A stretch of DNA of 64,000 nucleotides from a virus: positions 1 through 64,000 of the IMG/VR virus record IMGVR_UViG_3300035698_010625; one strand, written 5' to 3'. Of the stretch, positions 4,705 through 63,268 are shown one piece after another (position 1 is the first letter of the stretch; every line of letters begins with the position of its first letter). The notes beneath the pieces are model-generated. The model was not told where the DNA came from. It saw only the letters and a program-made list of their open reading frames with translations, and did not search any database. The position numbers were made by a program, and so were the translations under genes.

Positions 4705-5835
4705 ATGCAAACAATTGATTTTTTCATGGATCTCCCAGATGATCTATTTCCAATTTTTGAAATGTTTAAAGATGCTGATGCAGAACTCTATGTAGTTGGT
4801 GGTGCTGTACGAGACGCTCTTCTTGGTGAAACACCAAAGGACTTCGATCTCGTCACAAACGTTGAACCTGACGTAGTGCTTGAAATGGCACGAAAAGAAG
4901 GTATACACACAACTGCAGTAGGTAAAGCATTTGGAGTTGTCATTGTAAACGGCCATGAGATTGCTACTTTCAGAAAAGATATTGGAAGTGGTAGGCGCCC
5001 AGATTCAGTAGAATTTACTGATATTAACGGCGACGTCTCACGTAGGGATTTAACGATTAATGCACTCTTCTATGACACTGTTAAATGTCAGATTGTTGAC
5101 TTAGTTGGTGGGCTGGATGACCTTCTGGGCGTGGATAACGCAGATAGTCCACTCATCCGAACGGTGGGTGACCCCGCTGAAAGATTTGGGGAAGATCATC
5201 TTCGTAAGCTGCGCGCTGTGCGCTTTACTGCTTCTCTTGCAGGGAAGATGGATGATGACACGTTTACTGCAATCTGCAATAATCCGATGCTCGAAGGCGT
5301 TTCGCCAGAACGTATACGAGATGAGTTCATTAAAGGTTACATTAAAGCAGATAATAAAACAGTATATTTGAAATTGCTTCATTCAACTAGGTTAATGAAT
5401 TATATTTGGCCTACTCTGTGGGAAGTAAATTGGAATTGGGTGTTTGATGCCCTTTTCAATGTAGTCTTCGAAGATTGGAGATTACAACTTGCTGCAATGT
5501 TTGTTGGTACACCAGCAGATATGTTGAAGGACGAACTATTAAAGCTGAAATACAGTAAAGCTGAAGTATACGATATTTGCTTATTGCAGAGCCTTGACCG
5601 TTATGATTACAAAGATATTGTATCAATGAAAAAACGGTTGTCCCACACAACTCTTAGTAATGAGGATATCCTTCTATATGTGCATGACAAAAAGAAACTC
5701 AACAACTTACTGAATTTCGTGCTTACTGTAAAGGGTGGAGATGTAATGGCAGAAGGCTTTGTTGGCCCTGCAATTGCAACAGAAGTTAACCGAAGAGAAT
5801 TAGAACTATTTAGGAAAATGGATGAAGACTTTTAA
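4705..5835 (+). CDS. cca: class II tRNA nucleotidyltransferase (CCA-adding enzyme)
   Basis: VGGAVRD..KDFD catalytic motif, RRDLTINAL, EDHLRKLRAVRF (EDxxR templating motif), SPERIRDE. Confidence 0.85.
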   Translation: MQTIDFFMDLPDDLFPIFEMFKDADAELYVVGGAVRDALLGETPKDFDLVTNVEPDVVLEMARKEGIHTTAVGKAFGVVIVNGHEIATFRKDIGSGRRPDSVEFTDINGDVSRRDLTINALFYDTVKCQIVDLVGGLDDLLGVDNADSPLIRTVGDPAERFGEDHLRKLRAVRFTASLAGKMDDDTFTAICNNPMLEGVSPERIRDEFIKGYIKADNKTVYLKLLHSTRLMNYIWPTLWEVNWNWVFDALFNVVFEDWRLQLAAMFVGTPADMLKDELLKLKYSKAEVYDICLLQSLDRYDYKDIVSMKKRLSHTTLSNEDILLYVHDKKKLNNLLNFVLTVKGGDVMAEGFVGPAIATEVNRRELELFRKMDEDF

Positions 5836-6232
5836 GCAACTAAACGAATCAAAGAAGCAGGGCTACTTCGCAGTAATCCTCGATAAGCCAAGTCAAAAGA
5901 AAGTTCGTGCTTATGCTTCTTTTGAAGTCATTGATAGTAATCATATGACAGTTGCTTTTACTCCACCTTTAGAAGTATATGAAAATCTCATTAAGAATCA
6001 GGGGACTATTGTCGAGTTACGTTCACAGAGTTATTTAGAAAATGACAACATTGGAGCACTGATGATTTCACGCTCATCAGTAACACGATACGACGATAGT
6101 CCCGCTCACATAACCGTATCTAGAAAGGCTGGAGTGAGTGGAAAAGACGCTAAGAAATTACCAAGTACACACACAAAGAAACAACAAGCTGCTCATAATT
6201 TGCGTGGCAAACTACAATGGATCACGTTATGA
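5822..6232 (+). CDS. 2H phosphoesterase (cyclic phosphodiesterase fold) with capsid-targeting-like N-terminus
   Basis: Two HxT motifs (HMTVAF, HITVS); starts MKTFKQLNE. Confidence 0.65.
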   Translation: MKTFKQLNESKKQGYFAVILDKPSQKKVRAYASFEVIDSNHMTVAFTPPLEVYENLIKNQGTIVELRSQSYLENDNIGALMISRSSVTRYDDSPAHITVSRKAGVSGKDAKKLPSTHTKKQQAAHNLRGKLQWITL

Positions 6233-6777
6233 AGTCGTTTGATGAGTACATTACCGAATCACCACTGAAAGCTCTGCGATACGCTAAGAAACAACACAGT
6301 GGACAGACAAGATCTGATGGATCACCTTACATTAAACACCCTATGCGTGTTGCTAGATATTTACGTGATTTCAAAGCGTCAAAACAGTTGGATAAGTTGA
6401 TACAAGCAGCGTGGTTGCATGACACTATTGAAGACACTGACACGACCCATGAAGATTTAGAAAAGATGTTCGGAGGGCTTGTTGCTTCACTTGTTAAAGA
6501 ACTTACTTCTGATAGTGCTCGCATTAAAGAAATCGGAAAAACTGCTTACATGCAGGACAAGATGAAGCATATGTCTTCTTGGGCGCTTGCTATTAAGCTT
6601 GTAGATAGGCTTGATAACGTTCAAGATATCGCTACTGCGCGTACACCTGAATGGCGGGCTAAATATAAGAAACAAACACTCGATGTTATGGCTACACTAG
6701 AGAAGGATAGAACCCTTAGTGGAACTCATACACGAATCATTACTGCTATCAAGAAAAAATTAAGTGAAGTTGATTGA
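6229..6777 (+). CDS. HD-domain hydrolase, SpoT/Mesh1 ((p)ppGpp hydrolase)-like, capsid-targeting-like N-terminus
   Basis: HSGQTRSDGSPYIKHP, AAWLHDTIEDT, IKLVDRLDN; ATGA-coupled start at 6229 (MKSFDEYITE). Confidence 0.85.
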   Translation: MKSFDEYITESPLKALRYAKKQHSGQTRSDGSPYIKHPMRVARYLRDFKASKQLDKLIQAAWLHDTIEDTDTTHEDLEKMFGGLVASLVKELTSDSARIKEIGKTAYMQDKMKHMSSWALAIKLVDRLDNVQDIATARTPEWRAKYKKQTLDVMATLEKDRTLSGTHTRIITAIKKKLSEVD

Positions 6778-50876: not shown

Positions 50877-50951
50877 GTGGCCGTGGCCGAATGGTTTAGG
50901 TGCCTGACTGTGAATCAGATTATATGGGTTCAATTCCCATCGGTCACCCCA
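50877..50951 (+). tRNA. tRNA-His(GUG)
   Basis: Cloverleaf, CT-GTG-AA loop, C73, CCA. Confidence 0.9.
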
Positions 50952-50966
50952 ATGAAAATTTACAAT

Positions 50967-51043
50967 GCCCTTCTAGCTAAACTGGACAAGGCCCTCGGCT
51001 ACGAACTGAGAGATTGAAGGTTCGAATCCTTCGGAGGGTACCA
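50967..51043 (+). tRNA. tRNA-Arg(ACG)
   Basis: Cloverleaf, CCA. Confidence 0.9.
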
Positions 51044-51223
51044 TATTAAGGAGTTTGTTATGAGTAAATGGGATTACCCCAAGACTAAGAAGAATTCTGA
51101 TGGAGCAAAACTGACTGCTGCTGAATTACGCGCACAAAGAAAAGCTCATCGGAAAGCAATTAAAGCTACTGCTCATACTGAACTCAAGACGAAGAAAAAT
51201 AAAGATCAAATTAAGTAACAATT

Positions 51224-51300
51224 GGGTGCTTCGTATAACGGCACATTATGTCGGACTCTTAATCCGAACGATCTGGGTTCGAATCCCAGGGTACCCACCA
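51224..51300 (+). tRNA. tRNA-Lys(CUU)
   Basis: Cloverleaf, CCA. Confidence 0.9.
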
Positions 51301-51315
51301 AACAAAGGTATTATT

Positions 51316-51588
51316 ATGGAATTCACTGCTGAACTTGCTAAACAAATAGTTGAAGAAGATCATGATGATTGGGAACAAGTTAATGAAGAATCTTCTAATT
51401 CTTCCCGATGGCATACTCATTACAGTGGTGTTTATAAAAATACATTAACTGGAAAATACTATGAATTTATTTGGCAGCGTGGTTCTACTGAATATCAAGA
51501 TGAAGGTACAGAATTTTACACTGACCCAATAGAAGCTGTAGAAGTTATTGAAAAATCAGTAACTGTAATGCGCTGGGTTGCTGTTTAG
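51316..51588 (+). CDS. hypothetical protein
   Basis: SRW..HY..V.K, W.RGSTEYQD phage motif. Confidence 0.65.
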   Translation: MEFTAELAKQIVEEDHDDWEQVNEESSNSSRWHTHYSGVYKNTLTGKYYEFIWQRGSTEYQDEGTEFYTDPIEAVEVIEKSVTVMRWVAV

Positions 51589-51683
51589 TTTGTACGCGGA
51601 CGGTACTGCTTGGCAGTCCACTTGAATATCTTGTGGGTCACTGCACAGTCCGGGTTGAAGAACCTTAAACTTAACTAACAATT

Positions 51684-51759
51684 GCCGGTGAAGCAATCAG
51701 GGTATTGCAACTCGTTGTCTGCGAGAGATAGGAGGGTTCGAGTCCCTTCATCGGCGCCA
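51684..51759 (+). tRNA. tRNA-Asp(GUC)
   Basis: Cloverleaf, TT-GTC-TG loop, GCCA. Confidence 0.8.
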
Positions 51760-51765
51760 ATTTTT

Positions 51766-51841
51766 GGGGGATTAGCTCATCTGGGAGAGCGTCTGTTTTG
51801 CAAGCAGAAGGTGATCGGTTCGAGTCCGATATCTTCCACCA
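51766..51841 (+). tRNA. tRNA-Ala(UGC)
   Basis: G3:U70, CCA. Confidence 0.93.
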
Positions 51842-51876
51842 TTTTACTAGAAAGATTCATATACTTTCTAGACATT

Positions 51877-51954
51877 CGTTCGGTAGCTCAGCCTGGTTAG
51901 AGCACCCGTCTGATACGCGGTAGGTCGAAGGTTCAACTCCTTCTCGAACGACCA
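51877..51954 (+). tRNA. tRNA-Ile(GAU)
   Basis: Cloverleaf, CCA. Confidence 0.88.
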
Positions 51955-52211
51955 ATTTAAAGAGCTTAGGTGTAGAAACGAGAATGCACCTTTAAGAAAA
52001 CCTTGTTGCTGGGCTACCCGATAAATCATCTTCTCAGATGTATGCAACACAAACTTCAGCTCTTCCTTTTGTACTGTCATGCGGGGTCGCCTCGGTGACG
52101 AAAGTGCTAGCGGGTACCGTCTTAGTAACGGTTTCACGAGGTGCAGGACCTCGGGGGTTTTCAGTTTCCACAATCGGGCTAGCTAAAACTGAAGTACAAT
52201 TTTATTACAAT

Positions 52212-52288
52212 GCTACGTTCGTCTAATGGACTAGGACTCTGGGTTTTCACTTCAGATAATATCGGTTCGAATCCGATACGTAGTACCA
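52212..52288 (+). tRNA. tRNA-Glu(UUC)
   Basis: Cloverleaf, CCA. Confidence 0.88.
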
Positions 52289-52296
52289 ATTTCAAT

Positions 52297-52372
52297 TCCT
52301 AGTTAGTATTCTTGGTGAGCACGGGTGACTGTTAATCACTTCAGGTAGGTTCGAATCCTACACTAGGAGCCA
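52297..52372 (+). tRNA. tRNA-Asn(GUU)
   Basis: Cloverleaf, GCCA. Confidence 0.88.
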
Positions 52373-52460
52373 AATCAATGAGAGTTTAGTTCAAGTTAGA
52401 ACATCTGGCGCAATAGTCAGAAGATGCTGGTATCGAATCCAGTCCCTTTCACCGAATAAT

Positions 52461-52546
52461 GGATGTGATGTACCGGTGGTGGTATAGCGGGCTGTAACCC
52501 CGTGGCTCTTATGGGCGAGTAGGTTCGACTCCTTCCACATCCACCA
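52461..52546 (+). tRNA. tRNA-Tyr(GUA)
   Basis: Long variable arm, CCA. Confidence 0.85.
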
Positions 52547-52634
52547 ATTTCGTTGGCAGTAAGGTCACGCATTGAGATTGACCTCCTAGTAATAGGTACC
52601 TGATGGGTAAATTAAAAAGTGCGATTTCAAATTC

Positions 52635-52712
52635 CGGTGATTAGCTCAGCCTGGTTAGAGCTCTCCGTTTGGGGCGGAGTTGCCAGAGGTTCGAATCCTC
52701 TATCACCGACCA
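52635..52712 (+). tRNA. tRNA-Pro(UGG)
   Basis: Cloverleaf, CCA. Confidence 0.92.
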
Positions 52713-52885
52713 ATAACTAATTATCTAATGTGCTTGCCGGCATATGCGGATGATTGCACGAACTTCTATTGATAACAAGCGGTAACTTGTAATCATAAGA
52801 TGAGTTAATTAGTAGTTTAACGGTAGATCGCCTGGCTGGAAGATGCGGGTTCGAATCCTGTCTAATTACTTTCGTGATTTACAAC

Positions 52886-52960
52886 AGTTCCTTAACTCAG
52901 AGGCAGAGTATCGCTTTTACACAGCGAAGGTCGAGATTTCGAAATTCTCAGGAACTACCA
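52886..52960 (+). tRNA. tRNA-Val(UAC)
   Basis: Cloverleaf, CCA. Confidence 0.88.
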
Positions 52961-53148
52961 GTAACTAATCAACAGCTCGATGGGAGTCTTGCTATTTGAT
53001 TGCACAGCGTCTTACTCCCATAAGATTTATTGATAGTGTAATGGATGCACACTGGGGTTTAAACCTGGAAGTACGGTTCGATTCCGTGATTAATAACTTG
53101 GGCTGTGATTTACAAATCGCTTGAGCAACTGCTCGCGTACAATACAAT

Positions 53149-53236
53149 GGGAGTGTGGTGGAATTGGTATACACATTGGTCTTAGAAACCAACGACTGTA
53201 ATGGTCACGCAGGTTCGACTCCTGTCACTCCTACCA
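53149..53236 (+). tRNA. tRNA-Leu(UAG)
   Basis: Long variable arm, CCA. Confidence 0.92.
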
Positions 53237-53319
53237 ATCAATGTTCGATTAGCATAATGCAATGCGGCAAGTACTTGTAGAAGAAAGCTCGAATCTTTCA
53301 TCGAACTCCAAATTTAAAC

Positions 53320-53393
53320 GCTCAATTAGTTCAATGGTAGAACAACGGCCCGGTAAGTCGTTAACGTAAGTTCGATTCTTACATTGAGCACCA
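53320..53393 (+). tRNA. tRNA-Thr(GGU)
   Basis: Cloverleaf, CCA; C at position 33 (atypical). Confidence 0.85.
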
Positions 53394-53561
53394 ATTAATG
53401 CCCGGTTCGTCTAAATATTAGGACCTCTGCCATATTTGAGCAGAAAATAAAAGTGAGATTCTTTTACCGGACACCAAACAATGCCAAGGTCGTCTAATAA
53501 TCTAAGACCCTCTCGTGATAGAGAGAAATGAGGTGTAAATCCCCCCGAGGCACCAAACAAT

Positions 53562-53637
53562 GCTGGAGTCGTCTAACGGCTAGGACTTTACATTCTCAGT
53601 GTAAACAATGCGAGTTCGAATCTCGTCTCCAGTACCA
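53562..53637 (+). tRNA. tRNA-Glu(CUC)
   Basis: Cloverleaf, CCA. Confidence 0.88.
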
Positions 53638-53642
53638 AATCT

Positions 53643-53729
53643 GGATTGATCCGCTGGGTAGGCCGGCAGCACGGTTTGAACCCGTGGGTGACCGAAAGGT
53701 TAGGGGTTCGACTCCTCATCTCTCCGCCA
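53643..53729 (+). tRNA. tRNA-Ser(UGA)
   Basis: Long variable arm, GCCA; acceptor mismatches. Confidence 0.8.
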
Positions 53730-53965
53730 ATTTTATCCTTCGCTCGTCTAATGTTAAGACACCAAACCGTGGAGGTTTGGGGATAGAGGTTTGATTCCTT
53801 TGCTTAGGACCAATTTTAATGACTACTTCCTATACGTAGGTTAATAACTGAAAAGTTAAGAGTGGTCACCAAGTTATCCCACACTCATCGAATGGTACGG
53901 TAAACGTTAAGAAACGTTTCGTGGGGAGTTTATCAGAAAGCCGTGACAGATAGACAACTAACAAT

Positions 53966-54039
53966 AGCTGCATAGCATAGTGGTAATGCGGGGGTCTTTG
54001 AAACCTCTCAGTAAGGTTCGATTCCTTATGCGGCTGCCA
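53966..54039 (+). tRNA. tRNA-Gln(UUG)
   Basis: Cloverleaf, GCCA. Confidence 0.88.
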
Positions 54040-54125
54040 ATTTTGATGTGGATATAATCTATCCCTTGTGCGGGTGCCCCTAGTAATAGGTCAAGGCAGC
54101 AAACTGCTCACATCAGATTTAATAT

Positions 54126-54212
54126 GGAAGATTAACTAGACAGGGTTCTAGAGCTGTTTGCTAAACAGATGGTACCGCAAGGTATGAGTTTCGAATACTC
54201 AATTTTCCGCCA
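54126..54212 (+). tRNA. tRNA-Ser(GCU)
   Basis: Long variable arm, GCCA. Confidence 0.87.
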
Positions 54213-54241
54213 AACATAAAGAAAAATTAAGTATTAACAAT

Positions 54242-54316
54242 GGGACTCAGGTGTAACTGGGTGCACGGCGGACTTTTAATCCGTAAGGACAGGGTTCAAG
54301 CCCTGGGGTCCCACCA
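54242..54316 (+). tRNA. tRNA-Lys(UUU)
   Basis: Cloverleaf, CCA. Confidence 0.88.
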
Positions 54317-54403
54317 AATGTAAATGGAAATGCTTCGGCATTGTAAAACTCACCGAAAGGTTTCCACCCAAGTGTGGATATAAAGAAGTTCCGATTAGTC
54401 AAT

Positions 54404-54477
54404 GCGTCTAAGTACAAGGTGTATCCTCGGGTTTCCAACCCGTAGTGAGTGGGTTTCGATTACCCCTAGTCGCTCCA
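54404..54477 (+). tRNA. tRNA-Gly(UCC)
   Basis: GCG start, U73, CCA; atypical D arm. Confidence 0.75.
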
Positions 54478-54482
54478 ACAAT

Positions 54483-54555
54483 AGTTATCTAGCTCAACTG
54501 GCAGAGCACTAGCTTCATACGTTAGGGAATCTCGGTTCAAATCCGAGGGTAACTA
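54483..54555 (+). tRNA. tRNA with CAU anticodon (Met elongator or Ile2); no encoded CCA
   Basis: Cloverleaf; ends A-CAA. Confidence 0.85.
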
Positions 54556-54561
54556 CAATCT

Positions 54562-54569
54562 TATAAATA
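54562..54569 (+). promoter_or_regulatory. T4-type late promoter inside the tRNA island
   Basis: TATAAATA upstream of the MQTFKSFTE ORF. Confidence 0.8.
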
Positions 54570-54595
54570 CTCTTTTAATAAACGAGTATCAGAAA

Positions 54596-54850
54596 ATGCA
54601 AACTTTTAAAAGTTTCACCGAAGGAAATGTCGTTAAATTTCCTAAGAAGAAAAAACAAACCCACGATGAAATTACTGGATTGCCAATTGATTCACGTCTT
54701 CCAGATACCCCAGACGAATGGATGGTTGTATCAAAGGATGAGAGTGTAGCATATAGCACTTCACCAACTCGTCAAGAAGCACAGAAAAAACTTAAGACGT
54801 ATATGATGAAGACAGGTAAGAGAGATCTTAAAGTCATCAAATTTGGCTAA
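54596..54850 (+). CDS. small late protein with capsid-targeting-like N-terminus (internal protein candidate)
   Basis: MQTFKSFTEG; own late promoter. Confidence 0.6.
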   Translation: MQTFKSFTEGNVVKFPKKKKQTHDEITGLPIDSRLPDTPDEWMVVSKDESVAYSTSPTRQEAQKKLKTYMMKTGKRDLKVIKFG

Positions 54851-54859
54851 GATAATCCT

Positions 54860-54888
54860 CGCCAAGAAGGTCTAAACCATATATAATG
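54860..54888 (+). promoter_or_regulatory. phage early/middle promoter GCCAAGAAGGTCNAAACCATATATAAT
   Basis: Near-identical copy at 61427-61453; TATAAT -10. Confidence 0.7.
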
Positions 54889-54898
54889 ATATAACAAA

Positions 54899-54970
54899 GC
54901 GGGTATAGCTCAGTGGTAGAGCGGAACGTTGCCAACGTCCAGGTCGAGAGTTCGAATCTCTCTACCCGCT
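54899..54970 (+). tRNA. tRNA-Gly(GCC); no encoded CCA
   Basis: Canonical cloverleaf; ends U-CUA. Confidence 0.9.
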
Positions 54971-55180
54971 CTAATTTAGGATTATATGATGAATTTGGGA
55001 CTAACAAGTGATTGTGAGGCAGAAGCATATTTTGATAGCGCTGATACTTACATCAAACAATACAACGCTACTTATATGTTTGAGAATAGTTCTGCGAGAG
55101 TCCGAACTATCATTGCTGAATATTTTGCTAATCTAGATAATAAAACTATTTGGCTTTGGAAAACTAAGAGTGATTGAATC

Positions 55181-55399
55181 ATGCGCCTTATCATTTCGCG
55201 GACTAACAATGACAGCACTTTGGACTTCGAAGTTCATGATGCACGTTGGGTTACTTTTAGTGATAAAATGAAAGCATTTGCTTGGACTCGTCCGGGTAAT
55301 AAGCTTGGAATTTACTTCTCCGAGGAATATGTCAATCGCCGCTTTGTGAACATCTTTTGCATTAGCGCGCTTGAGAACATGCACTGGCAGGTTAAGTGA
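55181..55399 (+). CDS. hypothetical protein
   Basis: Short ORF in small-gene run. Confidence 0.45.
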   Translation: MRLIISRTNNDSTLDFEVHDARWVTFSDKMKAFAWTRPGNKLGIYFSEEYVNRRFVNIFCISALENMHWQVK

Positions 55400-55409
55400 G
55401 GATTACATT

Positions 55410-55601
55410 ATGTGGATTCGATTTGAAGAGAAACAACCCAAACAAGATAAAGACCTTTATTACTTCTTCGATGTAGTAGGTGTTCACTCAGGGCGCTATT
55501 ACGGCGGTGATACATTTCAAGGCCGAAGAGGTTTTCTCAATGGTGACGTTACTCATTGGCAATATGATAAAGGGCAGGGAAAACCTGCTGAACCAAAATG
55601 A
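55410..55601 (+). CDS. DUF551-like small protein
   Basis: MWIRFEEKQP...VTHWQ pattern. Confidence 0.55.
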   Translation: MWIRFEEKQPKQDKDLYYFFDVVGVHSGRYYGGDTFQGRRGFLNGDVTHWQYDKGQGKPAEPK

Positions 55602-55606
55602 ATAAT

Positions 55607-55683
55607 GCAAGAGTGGCTCGACTGGTGAAGGCCGGCGTCTTATATGCGTCTATATGTGGGTTCGAATCCCGCCTCTTGTACCA
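55607..55683 (+). tRNA. tRNA-Ile(UAU)
   Basis: GGCGT-CT-TAT-AT-GCGTC arm, CCA. Confidence 0.85.
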
Positions 55684-55691
55684 AAATATTT

Positions 55692-55768
55692 CAGGGTATA
55701 AGTCAGTCTGGTAGACACCCCGGTTTGGAACTGGGAAGCCGTTGGTTCGAATCCAACTACCCTGACCA
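55692..55768 (+). tRNA. tRNA-Pro(UGG), second copy
   Basis: Cloverleaf, CCA. Confidence 0.9.
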
Positions 55769-55785
55769 TTTAAAGAGAGTACATT

Positions 55786-56046
55786 ATGCTTACATTCAAT
55801 ATTAAAGATTTCTTTTGTTGGCATAGTATTCAAAAAGAAGAGTCATTTGAAGCTTTTCATGCAAGAGCAGAAGCACTGCATGAAACTTATCAACATTGGA
55901 CTCCTGTAAATGAAATTGAAAGAACAAATAGAGCAGTATGTTTTGTATCTTTTATTAACAATCACCCAAAAATCGTAAATCCATATACTGGTAAAACAAA
56001 AAAACAATTTTCTTTAACGGAATATCCTATATCTACCTTGTCTTAA
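55786..56046 (+). CDS. hypothetical protein
   Basis: ORF between tRNAs. Confidence 0.45.
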   Translation: MLTFNIKDFFCWHSIQKEESFEAFHARAEALHETYQHWTPVNEIERTNRAVCFVSFINNHPKIVNPYTGKTKKQFSLTEYPISTLS

Positions 56047-56069
56047 AGGTTGTATAATGATTATTCAAT

Positions 56070-56145
56070 ACACGGTAAGCAATTATGGTTAATGCGCTGG
56101 CTTGAAGTCCCAGATAACTAAGTTCGATTCTTAGACCGTGTACCA
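56070..56145 (+). tRNA. tRNA-Phe(GAA)
   Basis: Cloverleaf, CCA. Confidence 0.85.
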
Positions 56146-56168
56146 ATTTATTATGGAGTGACTGTGAT

Positions 56169-56870
56169 ATGTTTGCTGATTTTTGCACTGATCATTTCTC
56201 GACGAGTAACAATGCACATTACAGAAATCCGCGAACTGTTGACCAAAATGTAATTGCTAATGAGACAATGCTATTTAGCGCATCTCCAGAATTTGCTACT
56301 GCAAATGGTGGCCCACTTACTGCTTACTTTCTCTCCAAGCTTTTTGATGGTGGATTTGAAAGCATTGATACTCGAGGAATGCATTGGGTCATTGATACTC
56401 GCTCGCACATGCTGATGCCAGGTCAATTTCCTTCTATTCCAGGTTGGCATTGTGATGCTTGGGAGCGAGATCCAAAGACACAACAACCACTTTTATGGCA
56501 GCACCCACATGGTACCGCTATGCATTTTGTAATGACACTTGGTACTAATGATGATGGTGTATCACTTACAAAATTCATACTTCCTTTTGGTGTGCCGATT
56601 CGTGTATCTTACGATCCATCCAAAGTTTGGGGTTCTGTAAACGAATCAATTGAACACCAAATTGAAGATCTCGTTATATCACCAGATAGAATTATTAGTG
56701 CGCCTTCAGGGACACTCATTTCGTTTGGACAAAACATATTACATACGGCTAGTGTAGCTACCAGTAAAGGCTGGCGCTTCTTTGCTCGTATAAGTTTAAT
56801 GACAAATCCACCACTCAACAAAATTCGAAAACAGGTACAAGTTTACGCTGATTCAAATGTTGGTTGGTAA
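56169..56870 (+). CDS. 2OG-Fe(II) dioxygenase-like protein
   Basis: PGWHCD (HxD), distal LHTA, R.F.R end motif. Confidence 0.65.
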   Translation: MFADFCTDHFSTSNNAHYRNPRTVDQNVIANETMLFSASPEFATANGGPLTAYFLSKLFDGGFESIDTRGMHWVIDTRSHMLMPGQFPSIPGWHCDAWERDPKTQQPLLWQHPHGTAMHFVMTLGTNDDGVSLTKFILPFGVPIRVSYDPSKVWGSVNESIEHQIEDLVISPDRIISAPSGTLISFGQNILHTASVATSKGWRFFARISLMTNPPLNKIRKQVQVYADSNVGW

Positions 56871-56954
56871 ATGAATTAAGGGAAACGTTGGTTCGAGTCC
56901 AACTCCTGCGCTGGTGCAAAGGATCGTAATTGATGGCCAAGACACCCTTACGTT
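56870..56954 (+). ncRNA. circularly permuted tRNA-like RNA (YrlA/Y-RNA-like order)
   Basis: TAAGGG/CCCTTA stem enclosing T arm, then closed acceptor-like hairpin, then D-like arm. Confidence 0.55.
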
Positions 56955-56959
56955 ACAAT

Positions 56960-57033
56960 GTTGATATGGCAGAATGGTTATGCCGTGGCTTGCAAACCCA
57001 CTTACTCTGGTTCGATTCCGGATATCAACTCCA
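56960..57033 (+). tRNA. tRNA-Cys(GCA)
   Basis: U73, CCA. Confidence 0.88.
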
Positions 57034-57285
57034 AGATAAGGCTTTAGCCGCAGCAGAGTAGTCAGGCATGACATAAAAGGTCGAAATGAAAAAGTTTAGC
57101 CGGCTCGACCAGCTTTATTTCTGAGTTCAAAGGTGGTCCTGAGCACGATGGATATGCACCAATTGTAAAAAATGTCTGTGATGGTGATTATACCGAATTC
57201 TCAGTTTGTTTGGAATGTGGTACTCTGAAAGGTACTTTCCCGGTTGATGATCCTGTTTGGAATGATGAAGAAGAAGATTAACAAT

Positions 57286-57358
57286 GCGCCGCGCTCTGGG
57301 TAAGCAGTATGGTTTCCAATGCCTCGCGTGTGGAGTTCGATTCTCTGGCGGCGTGCAC
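57286..57358 (+). tRNA. atypical tRNA, probably Trp(CCA)
   Basis: Acceptor and T arm good; weak D and anticodon stems; TT-CCA-AT loop; no CCA. Confidence 0.5.
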
Positions 57359-57380
57359 CTGTAATAGATTAAAGAATAAT

Positions 57381-57456
57381 AAGAGTATAGTATAATGGCT
57401 CATTACCCCGGGCTCTGAACTCGGTAATCTAGGTTCGAATCCTAGTACTCTTGCCA
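57381..57456 (+). tRNA. tRNA-Gln(CUG)
   Basis: Cloverleaf, GCCA. Confidence 0.9.
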
Positions 57457-57463
57457 AATATAC

Positions 57464-57538
57464 GCCTGCTAAGCATTAATGGTGATGCACTGGTTTTGTA
57501 ATCCAGAGAAGAGGGATCGTTACCTTCAGTCGGCACCA
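57464..57538 (+). tRNA. tRNA-Thr(UGU)
   Basis: Cloverleaf, CCA. Confidence 0.82.
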
Positions 57539-57541
57539 AAT

Positions 57542-57615
57542 CGCGAGATGTTGAAATGGCATCCTGCTGGGCTCATAACCCTTCGTTGGCGGTTCAACTC
57601 CGTCTTTCGCTACCA
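57542..57615 (+). tRNA. initiator tRNA-fMet(CAU)
   Basis: C1:72 mismatch, GGG/CCC in anticodon stem, CCA. Confidence 0.8.
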
Positions 57616-57729
57616 ACTTTGTGAGATCGTCAAGTGTAATTATGTTAAAGCCCGAGATGATGACATTACAAAATGTACGAATCGGTTAATCTTTAACTAG
57701 CACAAGGGACATCTCACAAACTTTTTTAT

Positions 57730-57868
57730 GTTGTAACTGCAAGGATAATGCAGGGTGGTTGGAGAGCTTGTGAGGGTGTACAACCTTTTATCCACAGGTA
57801 TAAAGTTAGCTTTAACAAATCGAGGCGCTTTATAAATCTCTAGTGAAGTTCGATTCTTCATTACAACA
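57730..57868 (+). ncRNA. tRNA-like RNA with ~85-nt insert replacing the anticodon region
   Basis: GTTGTAA/TTACAAC acceptor, CTGCA/TGCAG D-like arm, TGAAG-TTCGATT-CTTCA T arm. Confidence 0.55.
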
Positions 57869-57876
57869 CTTTCAAT

Positions 57877-57964
57877 GGGAGTATGGTGGAATTGGTATAC
57901 ACAGCAGACTTAAAATCTGCCGCCTGTAATGGGCTCGGGGGTTCGAATCCCTCTACTCCTACCA
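57877..57964 (+). tRNA. tRNA-Leu(UAA)
   Basis: Long variable arm, CCA. Confidence 0.92.
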
Positions 57965-58404
57965 AATTAAGGTAAATATGATGCAGGAAACAAGCACTAA
58001 AACTATAGCAGATAAAGAAGCATTGATTCTGTCTGCTGGTGAATGTTATCCAGATACATCTAGTTTTATACGAGATGAAGTTGTGAAAGACATTAATTTT
58101 AAGCTAGTTGATAAGATGTGGGGCAAATAACGAGTGTTGCTCATGCTCCAACCTTCATATACAATGGTGAATGTAAACCTTGTGTAAGTAGGTTGTACCG
58201 TAGCTATTTGAGATACACTTATATAACTGCTGCACACATTAATGCACTGGTGTATGACATGGTAGTGGAATTAGATGATTTACTTATAGATGCTTCTGAA
58301 TTTCACCCATATATGATGGCGATACCACAATTAGCTGAAGAAGAATATATTGAATTTAATCGAATTGCATTCAAACTTCGATTTGCATTTTAAAGATTAA
58401 CAAT

Positions 58405-58479
58405 GCCCCGGGTGTTGGATACACAGCAGAGGTTTCTACCCTCAGCCTTCTGGGTTCGACTCCTAGTCGGGGTACACCA
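58405..58479 (+). tRNA. tRNA-Arg(UCU)
   Basis: GAGG-TT-TCT-AC-CCTC arm; T arm; atypical D arm and 3' end (ACACCA). Confidence 0.7.
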
Positions 58480-58877: not shown

Positions 58878-59702
58878 ATGATTACGCGAAACAAATTGGC
58901 TGTTGCTATTCTTGCTGCAGTTTCCATTACTACCGCAGCACACGCATCTGAAGTTACTACAATCACCGCTGGCTCCAAGGGCGGTGCATACGCTACTTAT
59001 GGCAACAATCTTGCAACTATGCTCACCCAGAATGATTGGAAGAGTAAGGTTATTCGCAGTAAGGGTTCAATTCAGAATATTGCCCGTCTTGTAGATGGCT
59101 CAGCACAAATTGGTTTCACCCAGGGCGATGCTTTGCAGCTCTCAAAGGCTGGTGGTAAGATTGATATTCTTGGAGCACTTGGAATGGAATGTGCTTTCAT
59201 TGTTTACAGTAAGAAGGGTAAGGTCACTGACGAAGATCATCTTCAGAATGAGGGTGTGAAAATTGCTGTTGGTAAGAAAGGTACTGGTTCACAAGCAACG
59301 TGGTCTTACATGGTTCAGCTAGAACCTGCATACGGTAATGCATCTGCACAGTATACTGGCGGAGCTCGCGCACTTGGCGCACTCAAAGCAGGCACTGTTG
59401 ACGCTGTTCTCTTTGTCACCGATCCCACTAATCTGAGTCATAAGCTTATTCAAGCAGTAAATGGTGATCCAGACCTCGATTTTCTAGACGTTGATGACAG
59501 TGACTTGAATGATGATCTACCTAATGGCACGCCTGTCTATGAATTCAAAGAAGTTGACACTGAAACGGGTGCTTTCGCGGATGACGTAGATACTATCTGT
59601 ACGCCTTTGCTAGTAATTGCTAGTGCAGATGCTGACGAAGACATGCTTGATGATGCTGCAGGAATTATGCTAAGCAATCGCAATGCGGTGCTTGGTAAGT
59701 AA
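58878..59702 (+). CDS. TAXI-family TRAP transporter solute-binding protein
   Basis: Signal peptide (AHA), GSKGGAY, SKGSIQNI, AQIGFTQGD, VGKKGTGS. Confidence 0.8.
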   Translation: MITRNKLAVAILAAVSITTAAHASEVTTITAGSKGGAYATYGNNLATMLTQNDWKSKVIRSKGSIQNIARLVDGSAQIGFTQGDALQLSKAGGKIDILGALGMECAFIVYSKKGKVTDEDHLQNEGVKIAVGKKGTGSQATWSYMVQLEPAYGNASAQYTGGARALGALKAGTVDAVLFVTDPTNLSHKLIQAVNGDPDLDFLDVDDSDLNDDLPNGTPVYEFKEVDTETGAFADDVDTICTPLLVIASADADEDMLDDAAGIMLSNRNAVLGK

Positions 59703-59725
59703 CAATGCAAAAGATAGTCGTTCCC

Positions 59726-59923
59726 AAGTTAGTACTTAATCGCTCTACGGAGAGGAAAGTCGGGACAAGCGGCATGATCGTGTGGGAGGAGTTAACTCCG
59801 CTTTACCACCGTGACATAGCTTGCAACACAAACAGGATTAGACAAATTGTGCATCAATGATATCCGGGTTGTGGCCAATAGACGAATGATAGCATAGAAC
59901 AGGATCCCGCTTACGGATTACTT
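59726..59923 (+). ncRNA. minimal RNase P RNA (rnpB-like)
   Basis: GAGGAAAGTCGGGA (CR-I) pairs with AACAGGATCCCGCTTA (CR-V) as P4 with bulged U; AGACGAATGAT (CR-IV); P5, P15 and L15 GGU can be drawn. Confidence 0.8.
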
Positions 59924-60212
59924 ACTACTTACAAGGAGCAAATGATGAGCAAGGTATACCCTCACTCAAGCACTAAGCAACGCGAACGATACGTGAAACA
60001 AAACGCTATTAAAGGCGAACGCTCTATCGGGCAAACTGATGCTTCAGTAGGCTGGTATGGACTTACAGTAAATTGGAAAGCTATTGTGCGTGGTGCACCG
60101 TGTTACATTACAACTAACTAAAAGGAGCAAGATATGCGCTTGATGAATTTAGAGCACCTCCTTAAATTGTGATTTTTGGTAAAACACTAATTCACACTTA
60201 AGGAAACATCTA

Positions 60213-61459: not shown

Positions 61460-62347
61460 ATAATCTGAACACAAACTAATAGATTGGGTCGCGTGGGATC
61501 CATAAGATAAGTAGCAGTAATGTTACGAAAGGCTATCTCATTTACGGATAGCGCCACTTTTATGAAGGTGGACATCTACGCAAGCCAAGCTCTTTACGGG
61601 TACCTCCGGGTGCTCTGGAAGATAAGTTGTGACCGACAAACACATCCAGGCCAACGGTGAGGATGATAGATTCCGCAAGAATCTCGGGTCAAGCAAAAGC
61701 AACGAACTTCAATGAGCAAAGGGTAGATTGAAAAGTTAAGCTTGCAGGTAAGGCTTTCAATCAATACGATAGGTGAAAGAAGATACAGCCTTCTGGAATC
61801 TAGAAATATTGCTAAGTAGCTCGCAAGGCGAAAGGTACGAGGTGGGTGGTATTTGGTAACTCAAAGGTTATTGAGCCACAGGCATTCGCTCATCTTAAAA
61901 TGTAAATATGTAAACGGAATAGGGGAATAGGTACACCCGCCCGGCCGCCAAAGCCAGGATCTGTTGGTTCGAATCCAACTTTCGTTATCAACTTTGTATT
62001 GATAACAAATCTTAAATGCAAAGACGAATGCCACCGTGAAGTGGAAATTGCTTAATCCTCAAACCCATAGGGTAATTGAGGTTCAGGATGCTCGCAAGGC
62101 GGATTGAATTAGTTGGAGTCACAGGTAAATTCTTAGCGGAGTTACACAGCCCAGCAAGGCTGACCGGTCGATGAATGCTGAAAAGCTCGCGGATAGAGGA
62201 ATCGCTACCTCTTTAAACAAAGCAGCAATGGTTGATTACTATGCCGCTCTTCGGAGGGTAAAGTGGAAAAGAGAAGAACCTAGCGGATCGCACCGTGTGG
62301 ATAATTTCTCGAAGGATCAACTGCATATGAGTATATTCTCAACTCAT
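61460..62347 (+). ncRNA. large structured ncRNA, GOLLD-like, with embedded tRNA-like element (61913-61990)
   Basis: Own promoter (-10 at 61448-53); ~890 nt without credible ORF; many GCAA/GNRA hairpins; GGCATTCG/CGAATGCC helix flanking the insert; terminal TGAG-TATATTCTCAA-CTCA hairpin. Confidence 0.65.
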
Positions 62348-63178: not shown

Positions 63179-63268
63179 GGCATTGTGGTGGAACTAAGGT
63201 ATACACAGCGTCTTCAAAAGCCGCCGGTCTTTGAGACTATGAGGGTTCGACTCCCTCCGATGCTACCA
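63179..63268 (+). tRNA. tRNA-Leu(CAA)
   Basis: Long variable arm, CCA. Confidence 0.88.

Follow-up and report, generated by a model that had tools for sequence, protein, structure and literature searches.

The genome of a T4-like phage contains a gene that encodes a reduced form of bacterial class A RNase P RNA. The gene is about 205 nt long and occupies positions 59726-59930 of the + strand of the window, that is, of the 64,000-nucleotide stretch of DNA that was analysed. The window corresponds to the first 64 kb of a 105.6-kb viral contig from IMG/VR (IMGVR_UViG_3300035698_010625), estimated to be ~59% complete. Comparisons with covariance models and with related sequences confirm a genuine gene, homologous to bacterial class A RNase P RNA. 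We propose that the encoded RNA probably cleaves the 5' leaders of the phage pre-tRNAs with the help of host RnpA. Few ribozymes are universal; RNase P RNA is among them, and it is treated in textbooks as a cellular housekeeping gene. In full-text literature searches, no publication describing an RNase P RNA encoded by a virus came up. If the phage RNA is a working ribozyme, it would be the first of this kind.

No RNase P match is found at the Rfam gathering thresholds in the entire 64-kb window. With permissive filters, the class A model RF00010 aligns globally with 59728-59929 at 38.3 bits, below its curated gathering threshold of 100 bits. The corresponding E-values are 1.4e-10 in a search of a 451-nt region and 7.6e-12 in a search of the whole 105.6-kb contig. 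The alignment hits the invariant positions of the model in CR-I, J5/15, L15, CR-IV and CR-V, and jumps over ~140 positions of the specificity domain and over 23 positions of P18. Neither the archaeal type T model (RF02357) nor the class B model (RF00011) gives a match at E <= 10, the type T search covering the whole contig. A single-sequence model, R1, derived from the RNA of another phage (locus L003) without any input from the window sequence, scores the window copy at 59.1 bits (E ~1e-14). Both R1 and a second family model, R2, match 59726-59927. The original prediction, made from the letters of the DNA, had proposed an RNase P-like RNA lacking most of its specificity domain. It is borne out by the RF00010 match and by covariation in 25 sequences (see below). 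Its 3' end, set at 59923, needs to be moved: the RNA probably ends near 59930, because the 3' strand of P1 extends that far. A blastn search with the locus found no match in deposited phages. The minimum-free-energy fold of 59726-59923 is uninformative (z = +0.9), which we attribute to the pseudoknotted fold of the RNA and to its dependence on tertiary contacts. The features of the window copy are as follows.

59726-59930, + strand: whole mini RNase P RNA gene (RF00010 and R1/R2 matches; P1 duplex reaching 59930)
59726-59741, + strand: P1 5' strand; its inner part UAAUC (59737-59741) is also the sole candidate for the P2 5' strand
59743-59752, + strand: P3 hairpin CUC(UACG)GAG, covarying in the family
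59752-59764, + strand: CR-I and P4 5' strand (A59757-G59764, U59760 bulged)
59766-59770 / 59819-59823, + strand: P5, CAAGC/GCUUG, enclosing about 48-49 nt
59772-59777 / 59847-59852, + strand: P6 pseudoknot, GCAUGA/UUGUGC, 6/6 paired
59778-59814, + strand: P7-P9 stub; helices 7-9 covary in the family
within 59819-59826, + strand: J5/15 CAA, after the P5 3' strand, conserved in the family
59827-59873, + strand: P15-P16-P17 arm (model alignment and pair counts)
59878-59893, + strand: CR-IV / J18/2 AUAGACGAAUG, then P2 3' strand GAUAGC at 59888-59893 (RF00010 alignment)
59898-59913, + strand: CR-V and P4 3' strand, C59906-U59912 (model alignment and family pairing)
59916-59930, + strand: P1 3' strand GAUUACUUACUACUU, beginning 2 nt past GCUUA in the family register

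The catalytic domain is retained. CR-I (GAGGAAAGUCGGGA, 59752-59765), a CR-IV-like strand (AGACGAAUGAU, 59880-59890) and CR-V (AACAGGAUCCCGCUUA, 59898-59913) are present and follow each other in the class A order (59752-59764, 59878-59888 and 59898-59913, respectively). In P4, A59757-A-G and C59761-G-G-G59764, separated by the bulged U59760, pair with C59906-C-C-G-C-U-U59912 (7/7). The changed pair is G59762:C59908, which is C:G in E. coli. These motifs, the compensatory change in P4 and the bulged U had all been recognised in the original prediction. The same holds for the CR-IV-like strand, for the tiny P3, for P5 with its ~50 enclosed nucleotides, for P15 with an L15 GGU and for the absence of P18; each of these was recovered at the positions listed. 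Only GCCAAU separates P15 from CR-IV. P15 is formed by CACA 59827-59830 and UGUG 59870-59873, P16 by GGAU 59835-59838 and AUCC 59862-59865, and a weak P17 by 59841-59842 and 59854-59855. The L15 sequence, GGGU, is found at 59866-59869, between P16 and P15. In bacterial RNase P, the L15 GGU pairs with the 3' RCCA of the pre-tRNA (PMC4919922). The P6 pseudoknot had escaped the original prediction. P6 pairs J5/7 with the P17 loop and, in bacterial class A RNAs, is one element of the P6/P15/P16/P17 stack (PMC4919922). In the window copy, all pairs are formed in P3 (4/4), P4 (7/7), P5 (4/4), P6 (6/6), P7 (5/5), the hairpin of the stub (3/3), P15 (4/4) and P16 (3/3). P1 can form 13 bp with an energy of -7.7 kcal/mol (RNAduplex, 59726-59741 with 59916-59930); in the model alignment, it contains mismatches and 9 of its 12 positions are paired.

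The 48-49-nt insert enclosed by P5 is best read, from its sequence and alignment, as a P7-P9 stub of the specificity domain. Its outer stem, GUGG 59782-59785 / CCAC 59806-59809, can be extended to 59778-59814 with C59810 bulged. The register of this stem is ambiguous and the model picked 59781-59785 / 59809-59816. Inside the stem are found GA (59786-59787), the hairpin GGAG(UUAA)CUCC (59788-59799) and GCUUUA (59800-59805). About 20 relatives have the same module, stem-GA-hairpin-GYUnnnA-stem, and it covaries among them. In relatives with a P8, the Rfam class A model aligns the GA-GGC...GCC hairpin to P9, as it also does for a class A RNA of 249 nt in a Pseudomonas assembly; our reading of the insert relies on this correspondence. 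It also led us to reject, for this sub-type, an unrelated inserted element replacing the specificity domain. A K-turn at the GA / G...A internal loop was rejected as well, the 3' strand being devoid of a helix-adjacent GA in most members. GYUnnnA might conceivably form a T-loop: a U located five positions upstream of its conserved A is common, though not universal. Beyond the stub, P8, P10-P14 with CR-II and CR-III, and P18 are all missing from the window copy. CR-II and CR-III touch the D and T loops of the tRNA (PMC4919922).

Related RNAs were searched in IMG/VR with a pattern fixing CR-I and CR-V alone and leaving the variable P4 pair free. At the same spacing as in the window, 10 further viral contigs were found. 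All of them keep the variable P4 pair, as G-C, A-U or C-G. Neighbouring spacings gave 18 more viral contigs. A scan specific to the sub-type yielded 23 loci in metagenomes. The structure of the L003 RNA, at 6197-6398 on the - strand of that locus, was written by hand, all its 57 pairs were verified to form, and R1 was built from this sequence alone. R1 recovers all loci, window included. The second model, R2, was then used for a structural alignment of 25 sequences with Infernal. MAFFT-only alignments misplaced the 5' helices and the insert, and the Infernal alignments were used instead.

In the 25 distinct sequences, standard pairs occupy 94.0% of the cells, as compared with 33-43% when the 3' partners are slid by 1-3 columns. 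Double-sided changes are seen in 48 of the 57 pairs, and none of 500 shuffles reached any of the observed measures. P4 is 100% paired and covaries, its variable pair being GC in 12 sequences, AU in 11 and CG in 2, and P5 is 100% paired with covariation at 3 of its 4 modelled pairs. P6 is 84% paired in the family, with double-sided changes in 6/6 pairs. Neither P4 nor P6 is part of the model, so the alignment was not fitted to them. Single-stranded positions are conserved too. G-C-A-A 59823-59826 (J5/15), which the search pattern does not fix, is invariant in 24-25 of the 25 sequences. Outside the pattern, the other invariant unpaired nucleotides are AG and AUG of CR-IV and one G of L15. Judging from the alignment, this is a conserved family under selection for the RNase P fold. 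The structural reading of the window copy, a viral RNase P RNA with a reduced specificity domain and a retained catalytic domain, is thus supported by family-wide covariation. An ATG-started ORF (59705-59860, 51 aa) overlaps the 5' half of the RNA, so that a coding stretch or a chance resemblance might be considered. The model E-values of 1e-10 to 1e-14 argue against both, as do the compensatory changes just described, and conservation at the RNA level continues past the ORF. The covariation data refute such a reading, to which we give practically no credence.

The window copy belongs to a sub-type that we call 'GGGAG' (P7-P9 stub): it has a class A C-domain, the module at 59782-59809 and adjacent tRNA genes. 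This sub-type has 16 distinct relatives on viral and metagenome contigs. In bacterial assemblies, 5 clear relatives were found, together with a weaker match in Achromobacter anxifer. The distance from CR-I to CR-V is 134 nt in the window, near the small end of the range. With the strict pattern, the spacings in viral contigs form a continuum:

88-118 nt: 3 viral contigs
119-149 nt: 10 viral contigs and the window
150-180 nt: 15 viral contigs
181-211 nt: 15 viral contigs
212-242 nt: 12 viral contigs
243-273 nt: 36 viral contigs
274-304 nt: 22 viral contigs

The association with tRNA genes extends through the family. Same-strand tRNA genes, often 10-38 of them, are found in the flanks of the RNA at 24 of the 28 viral loci with mini spacing. 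Many relatives have the RNA just a few nucleotides away from same-strand tRNA genes, an arrangement in which tRNA processing would itself free the RNA. The cultured strain A. anxifer LMG 26857 (NZ_CAHLAR010000005.1) has a 224-nt mini copy at L057:6074-6297, between tRNA-Pro and tRNA-Arg genes. Around it, the chromosome has at least 32 tRNA genes in an array of 6.5 kb (L057:1460-8000). The strain also has a normal 405-nt rnpB on a different contig. The mini RNA of A. anxifer is an accessory, carried along with tRNA arrays. An Acidimicrobiia sequence (L055/L062) that looked like a short cellular RNase P RNA was discarded as an artefact, N letters replacing the specificity domain.

P2, which in class A RNAs connects P1 and P3 by 6-7 bp, sets the window copy apart from the family. 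In the model alignment, 2 of its 6 positions are paired, versus 6/6 in 23 of the 24 other aligned sequences and 5/6 in the remaining one, the rearranged L004. The best P2 duplex, A59739-U-C59741 / G59888-A-U59890, has ~3 bp and an energy of -1.4 kcal/mol, to be compared with -8.7 to -14.7 kcal/mol in 16 relatives. About 4 nt of the P2 5' strand are absent with respect to the family model. UAAUC 59737-59741 can instead pair with GAUUA 59916-59920, lengthening P1 to 13 bp. A GCUAUU at ~60081 was considered as a partner for the orphan 3' strand of P2 and judged to be there by chance. A search with the flanking proteins found no syntenic relatives of the phage in viral contigs. With a nearly lost P2, the window copy may be a weakened member of the family, and the erosion lowers our confidence in its full activity. 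One may go further and imagine that the family is functional while the window copy is a relic decaying in its tRNA island since the loss of the P2 5' strand. The pairing deficit, the poor duplex energy and the missing nucleotides all fit such a decay, and the R1 score of the window copy is the lowest among the P18-less members of its sub-type. On the other hand, all the other helices, the P6 pseudoknot and the conserved single-stranded nucleotides are intact, the 13-bp P1 is still available, and the damage is limited to one helix with none of the scattered substitutions of a pseudogene. We hold decay to be unlikely, and favour the reading of a probably active, if possibly weakened, ribozyme.

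Among known RNase P RNAs, class A, with E. coli M1 RNA (rnpB, RF00010), is the sole class whose model matches the phage RNA, class B and type T giving none. The two RNAs share CR-I, CR-IV and CR-V, P4 with its bulged U, P1, P3, P5, the P6 pseudoknot, the P15-P17 arm with L15 GGU and J5/15 GCAA. They differ in size, ~205 nt for the phage RNA against 340-420 nt for class A. P8, P10-P14 (CR-II/III) and P18 are absent from the phage RNA, and P2 is nearly lost in the window copy. The phage RNA is also virus-encoded and stands beside the virus's own tRNA genes. A natural RNA of ~200 nt with only a catalytic domain and nearly no specificity domain is described in Pyrobaculum (type T/P; Lai et al. 2010, as cited in PMC4919922). 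Both RNAs are thus ~200 nt long, keep the catalytic domain and have lost nearly all of the specificity domain. In contrast, the Pyrobaculum RNA belongs to the archaeal type and has several archaeal protein partners, whereas L15 GGU and P6, both bacterial features, are found in the phage RNA. The reductions are independent and convergent. The comparison with archaeal type T made in the original prediction is therefore useful as an analogy; as a match it does not stand, RF02357 finding nothing.

Bacterial RNase P RNAs engineered to consist of the C-domain alone can cleave pre-tRNA whether RnpA is present or not, according to the summary in PMC4919922 (its refs 75-77). They retain the same parts as the phage RNA. 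These constructs are truncations made in the laboratory and have a reduced rate and affinity, whereas the phage RNA is a natural conserved gene that keeps a covarying P7-P9 stub. The diverged class A RNAs of CPR bacteria are devoid of P12, P13, P14 and P18 (PMC8172020). Like the phage RNA, they are reduced class A RNAs that fall under the Rfam thresholds and have lost P18 and peripheral helices of the specificity domain. Unlike it, they are the only RNase P RNA of the cell, they keep P10/P11, and some have lost the L15 motif, while in the phage RNA L15 is present and P10-P12 are gone.

The contig is that of a genuine T4-like myovirus, with strong PHROG matches to the large terminase, tail sheath, portal, gp23-type major head and a gp46-like SbcC subunit. 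The nearest deposited phages have less than 60% identity in the major head protein. The following features are relevant to the RNA.

4705-5835: CCA-adding-type tRNA nucleotidyltransferase, 376 aa, with a PolyA_pol head and an RNA-binding domain
50877-58475, + strand: array of 27 tRNA genes (ARAGORN), upstream of the RNA and on the same strand
58878-59702: periplasmic solute-binding protein gene, 274 aa, with a TAXI/NMT1_3-type domain (Pfam NMT1_3, 68 bits)
59942-60121: 59-codon ORF with a ribosome-binding site at 59933-59938
61839-62345, same strand as the RNase P RNA: GOLLD RNA (RF02032), 151.6 bits for a cut-off of 150
61913-61987 and 63179-63268: two further tRNA genes (ARAGORN)

ARAGORN thus finds 29 tRNA genes in the window, 27 of them upstream of the RNA, somewhat fewer than the more than 30 neighbouring tRNAs first announced. 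CCA is encoded in 24 of the 29 genes, the exceptions including Met, Gly, Arg-UCU and Trp genes. Over the five or six bases ahead of the mature 5' end, the leaders share the consensus AACAAU; U(-1) is found in 23 of 27, A(-3) in 22 and C(-4) in 16. One ARAGORN tRNA, at 53028-53097, would decode the stop codon UAA with its anticodon UUA. It scores 30 bits with the Rfam tRNA model, has no CCA and could be a suppressor or a tRNA-like element. The tRNA-Trp gene at 61913-61987 is nested in the linker of the GOLLD RNA, itself located 1.9 kb downstream of the RNase P RNA. The solute-binding protein encoded directly upstream of the RNA begins with a hydrophobic stretch that resembles a signal peptide by eye.

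The RNA begins 23 nt past the stop codon of the upstream ORF and ends 3 nt before the ribosome-binding site of the downstream ORF. No promoter-like or terminator-like sites flank it. With such tight neighbours and no such sites, discrete ends would have to be produced by processing. An AACAAU at 59701-59706, upstream of the RNA, resembles the tRNA leaders, yet no acceptor-like helix follows it.

Taken with these data, 5' maturation of the phage tRNAs with host RnpA is the most likely function that we infer. The RNA would be transcribed along with the surrounding phage genes, then fold and bind host RnpA through the retained surface of its C-domain. It would next remove the 5' leaders from the phage's own pre-tRNAs. 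Substrates would be recognised by their acceptor stem, by pairing of the encoded CCA with L15 and by their uniform AACAAU leader, rather than by the tRNA elbow. The phage would thereby be better able to process a burst of some 30 tRNAs. In bacterial RNase P RNA, the RnpA-binding surface lies within the C-domain. The parts retained in the phage RNA are exactly those needed for the RCCA-L15 and RnpA-leader contacts, and the CCA encoded in most tRNA genes fits the conserved L15 GGU. The bacterial C-domain alone is able to cleave pre-tRNA with or without RnpA, at lower rate and affinity, and RnpA binds leader positions -4 to -7 (PMC4919922). No RnpA homolog (PF00825) was found in the 105-kb contig, ~59% complete, which makes host RnpA the likely partner. 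As a counterpoint, the loss of CR-II/III takes away the known contacts with the tRNA elbow.

The same observations can be turned towards a non-enzymatic mimic that would titrate RnpA or compete with the host RNase P RNA, and so divert or shut down the maturation of host tRNAs. What is retained is the RnpA-binding C-domain, the phage contig shows no RnpA of its own, and a decoy could do without the domain that reads the elbow. A decoy would have no need, however, of the L15 GGU, of the bulged U of P4 or of the J5/15 and CR-IV nucleotides, all of which are invariant. In addition, same-strand tRNA arrays, both in phages and on a bacterial chromosome that bears its own rnpB, fit processing, not sabotage. 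We consider a decoy improbable. An active ribozyme might also be directed mainly at non-canonical targets, such as tRNA-like elements, the GOLLD RNA with its nested tRNA or a polycistronic transcript. An enzyme lacking the specificity domain should depend less on the tRNA elbow, and the GOLLD RNA with its embedded tRNA-Trp is close by. The uniform leader and encoded CCA, though, belong to ordinary tRNA genes. This possibility, which overlaps with 5' maturation of tRNAs and does not exclude it, seems to us very improbable as the main role. Beyond the window copy, there is in our opinion about an even chance that large phages and phage-like tRNA-array islands of bacteria carry a working RNase P made of a C-domain and a P7-P9 stub, acting independently of the elbow and using the CCA, the uniform leader and host RnpA.

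If true, this would be a natural proof that the bacterial C-domain suffices in vivo. A catalytic RNA would join the translation kit of large phages, which includes tRNAs, the CCA-adding enzyme and, in some relatives, tmRNA. How small the ribozyme can be while still recognising and cleaving its substrates in vivo is a long-standing question, studied so far with engineered truncations and with the archaeal RNA of Pyrobaculum. The family would bring to it dozens of minimal bacterial RNase P RNAs that occur naturally and covary, and could offer compact scaffolds of ~200 nt for structural work and in-vitro tRNA production. Annotation at the Rfam gathering threshold overlooks these mini RNAs. The cultured carrier A. 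anxifer LMG 26857 opens the question to direct testing.

Other reduced forms were encountered during the searches. In L006, L020 and L023, CR-II/CR-III-like strands (ACAGAGACGA...GUGAAACGGC) are kept and the P15-P17 arm is shortened or replaced, as judged by eye. This other sub-type suggests that phages arrived at small RNase P RNAs by more than one route. A Pseudomonas assembly (Pseudomonas sp. NPDC096917, L061:1501-1749) contains a class A RNA of 249 nt in which P7-P9 and P18 are present and P10-P14 are missing. It scores 187 bits, above the Rfam cut-off, and is the sole RF00010 match found in this 5.2-Mb assembly. A near-identical RNA is present on a 34-kb metagenome contig (L039). On several phage contigs bearing a mini RNase P RNA, the tRNA island that contains it also includes a tmRNA gene (L009:2543-2928, L017:2017-2391, L021:6827-7193 and L028:404-770). 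Finally, the RNA at L004:7796-8040 (IMGVR_UViG_3300040801_001572) looks circularly permuted, by eye and in one sequence. The P2 5' strand AACCGUC, a conserved GC and the P3 5' strand CUGAAA are all located after CR-V. AACCGUC pairs with GACGGUU, CUGAAA pairs with a UUUCAG just before CR-I, and a short linker replaces P1.
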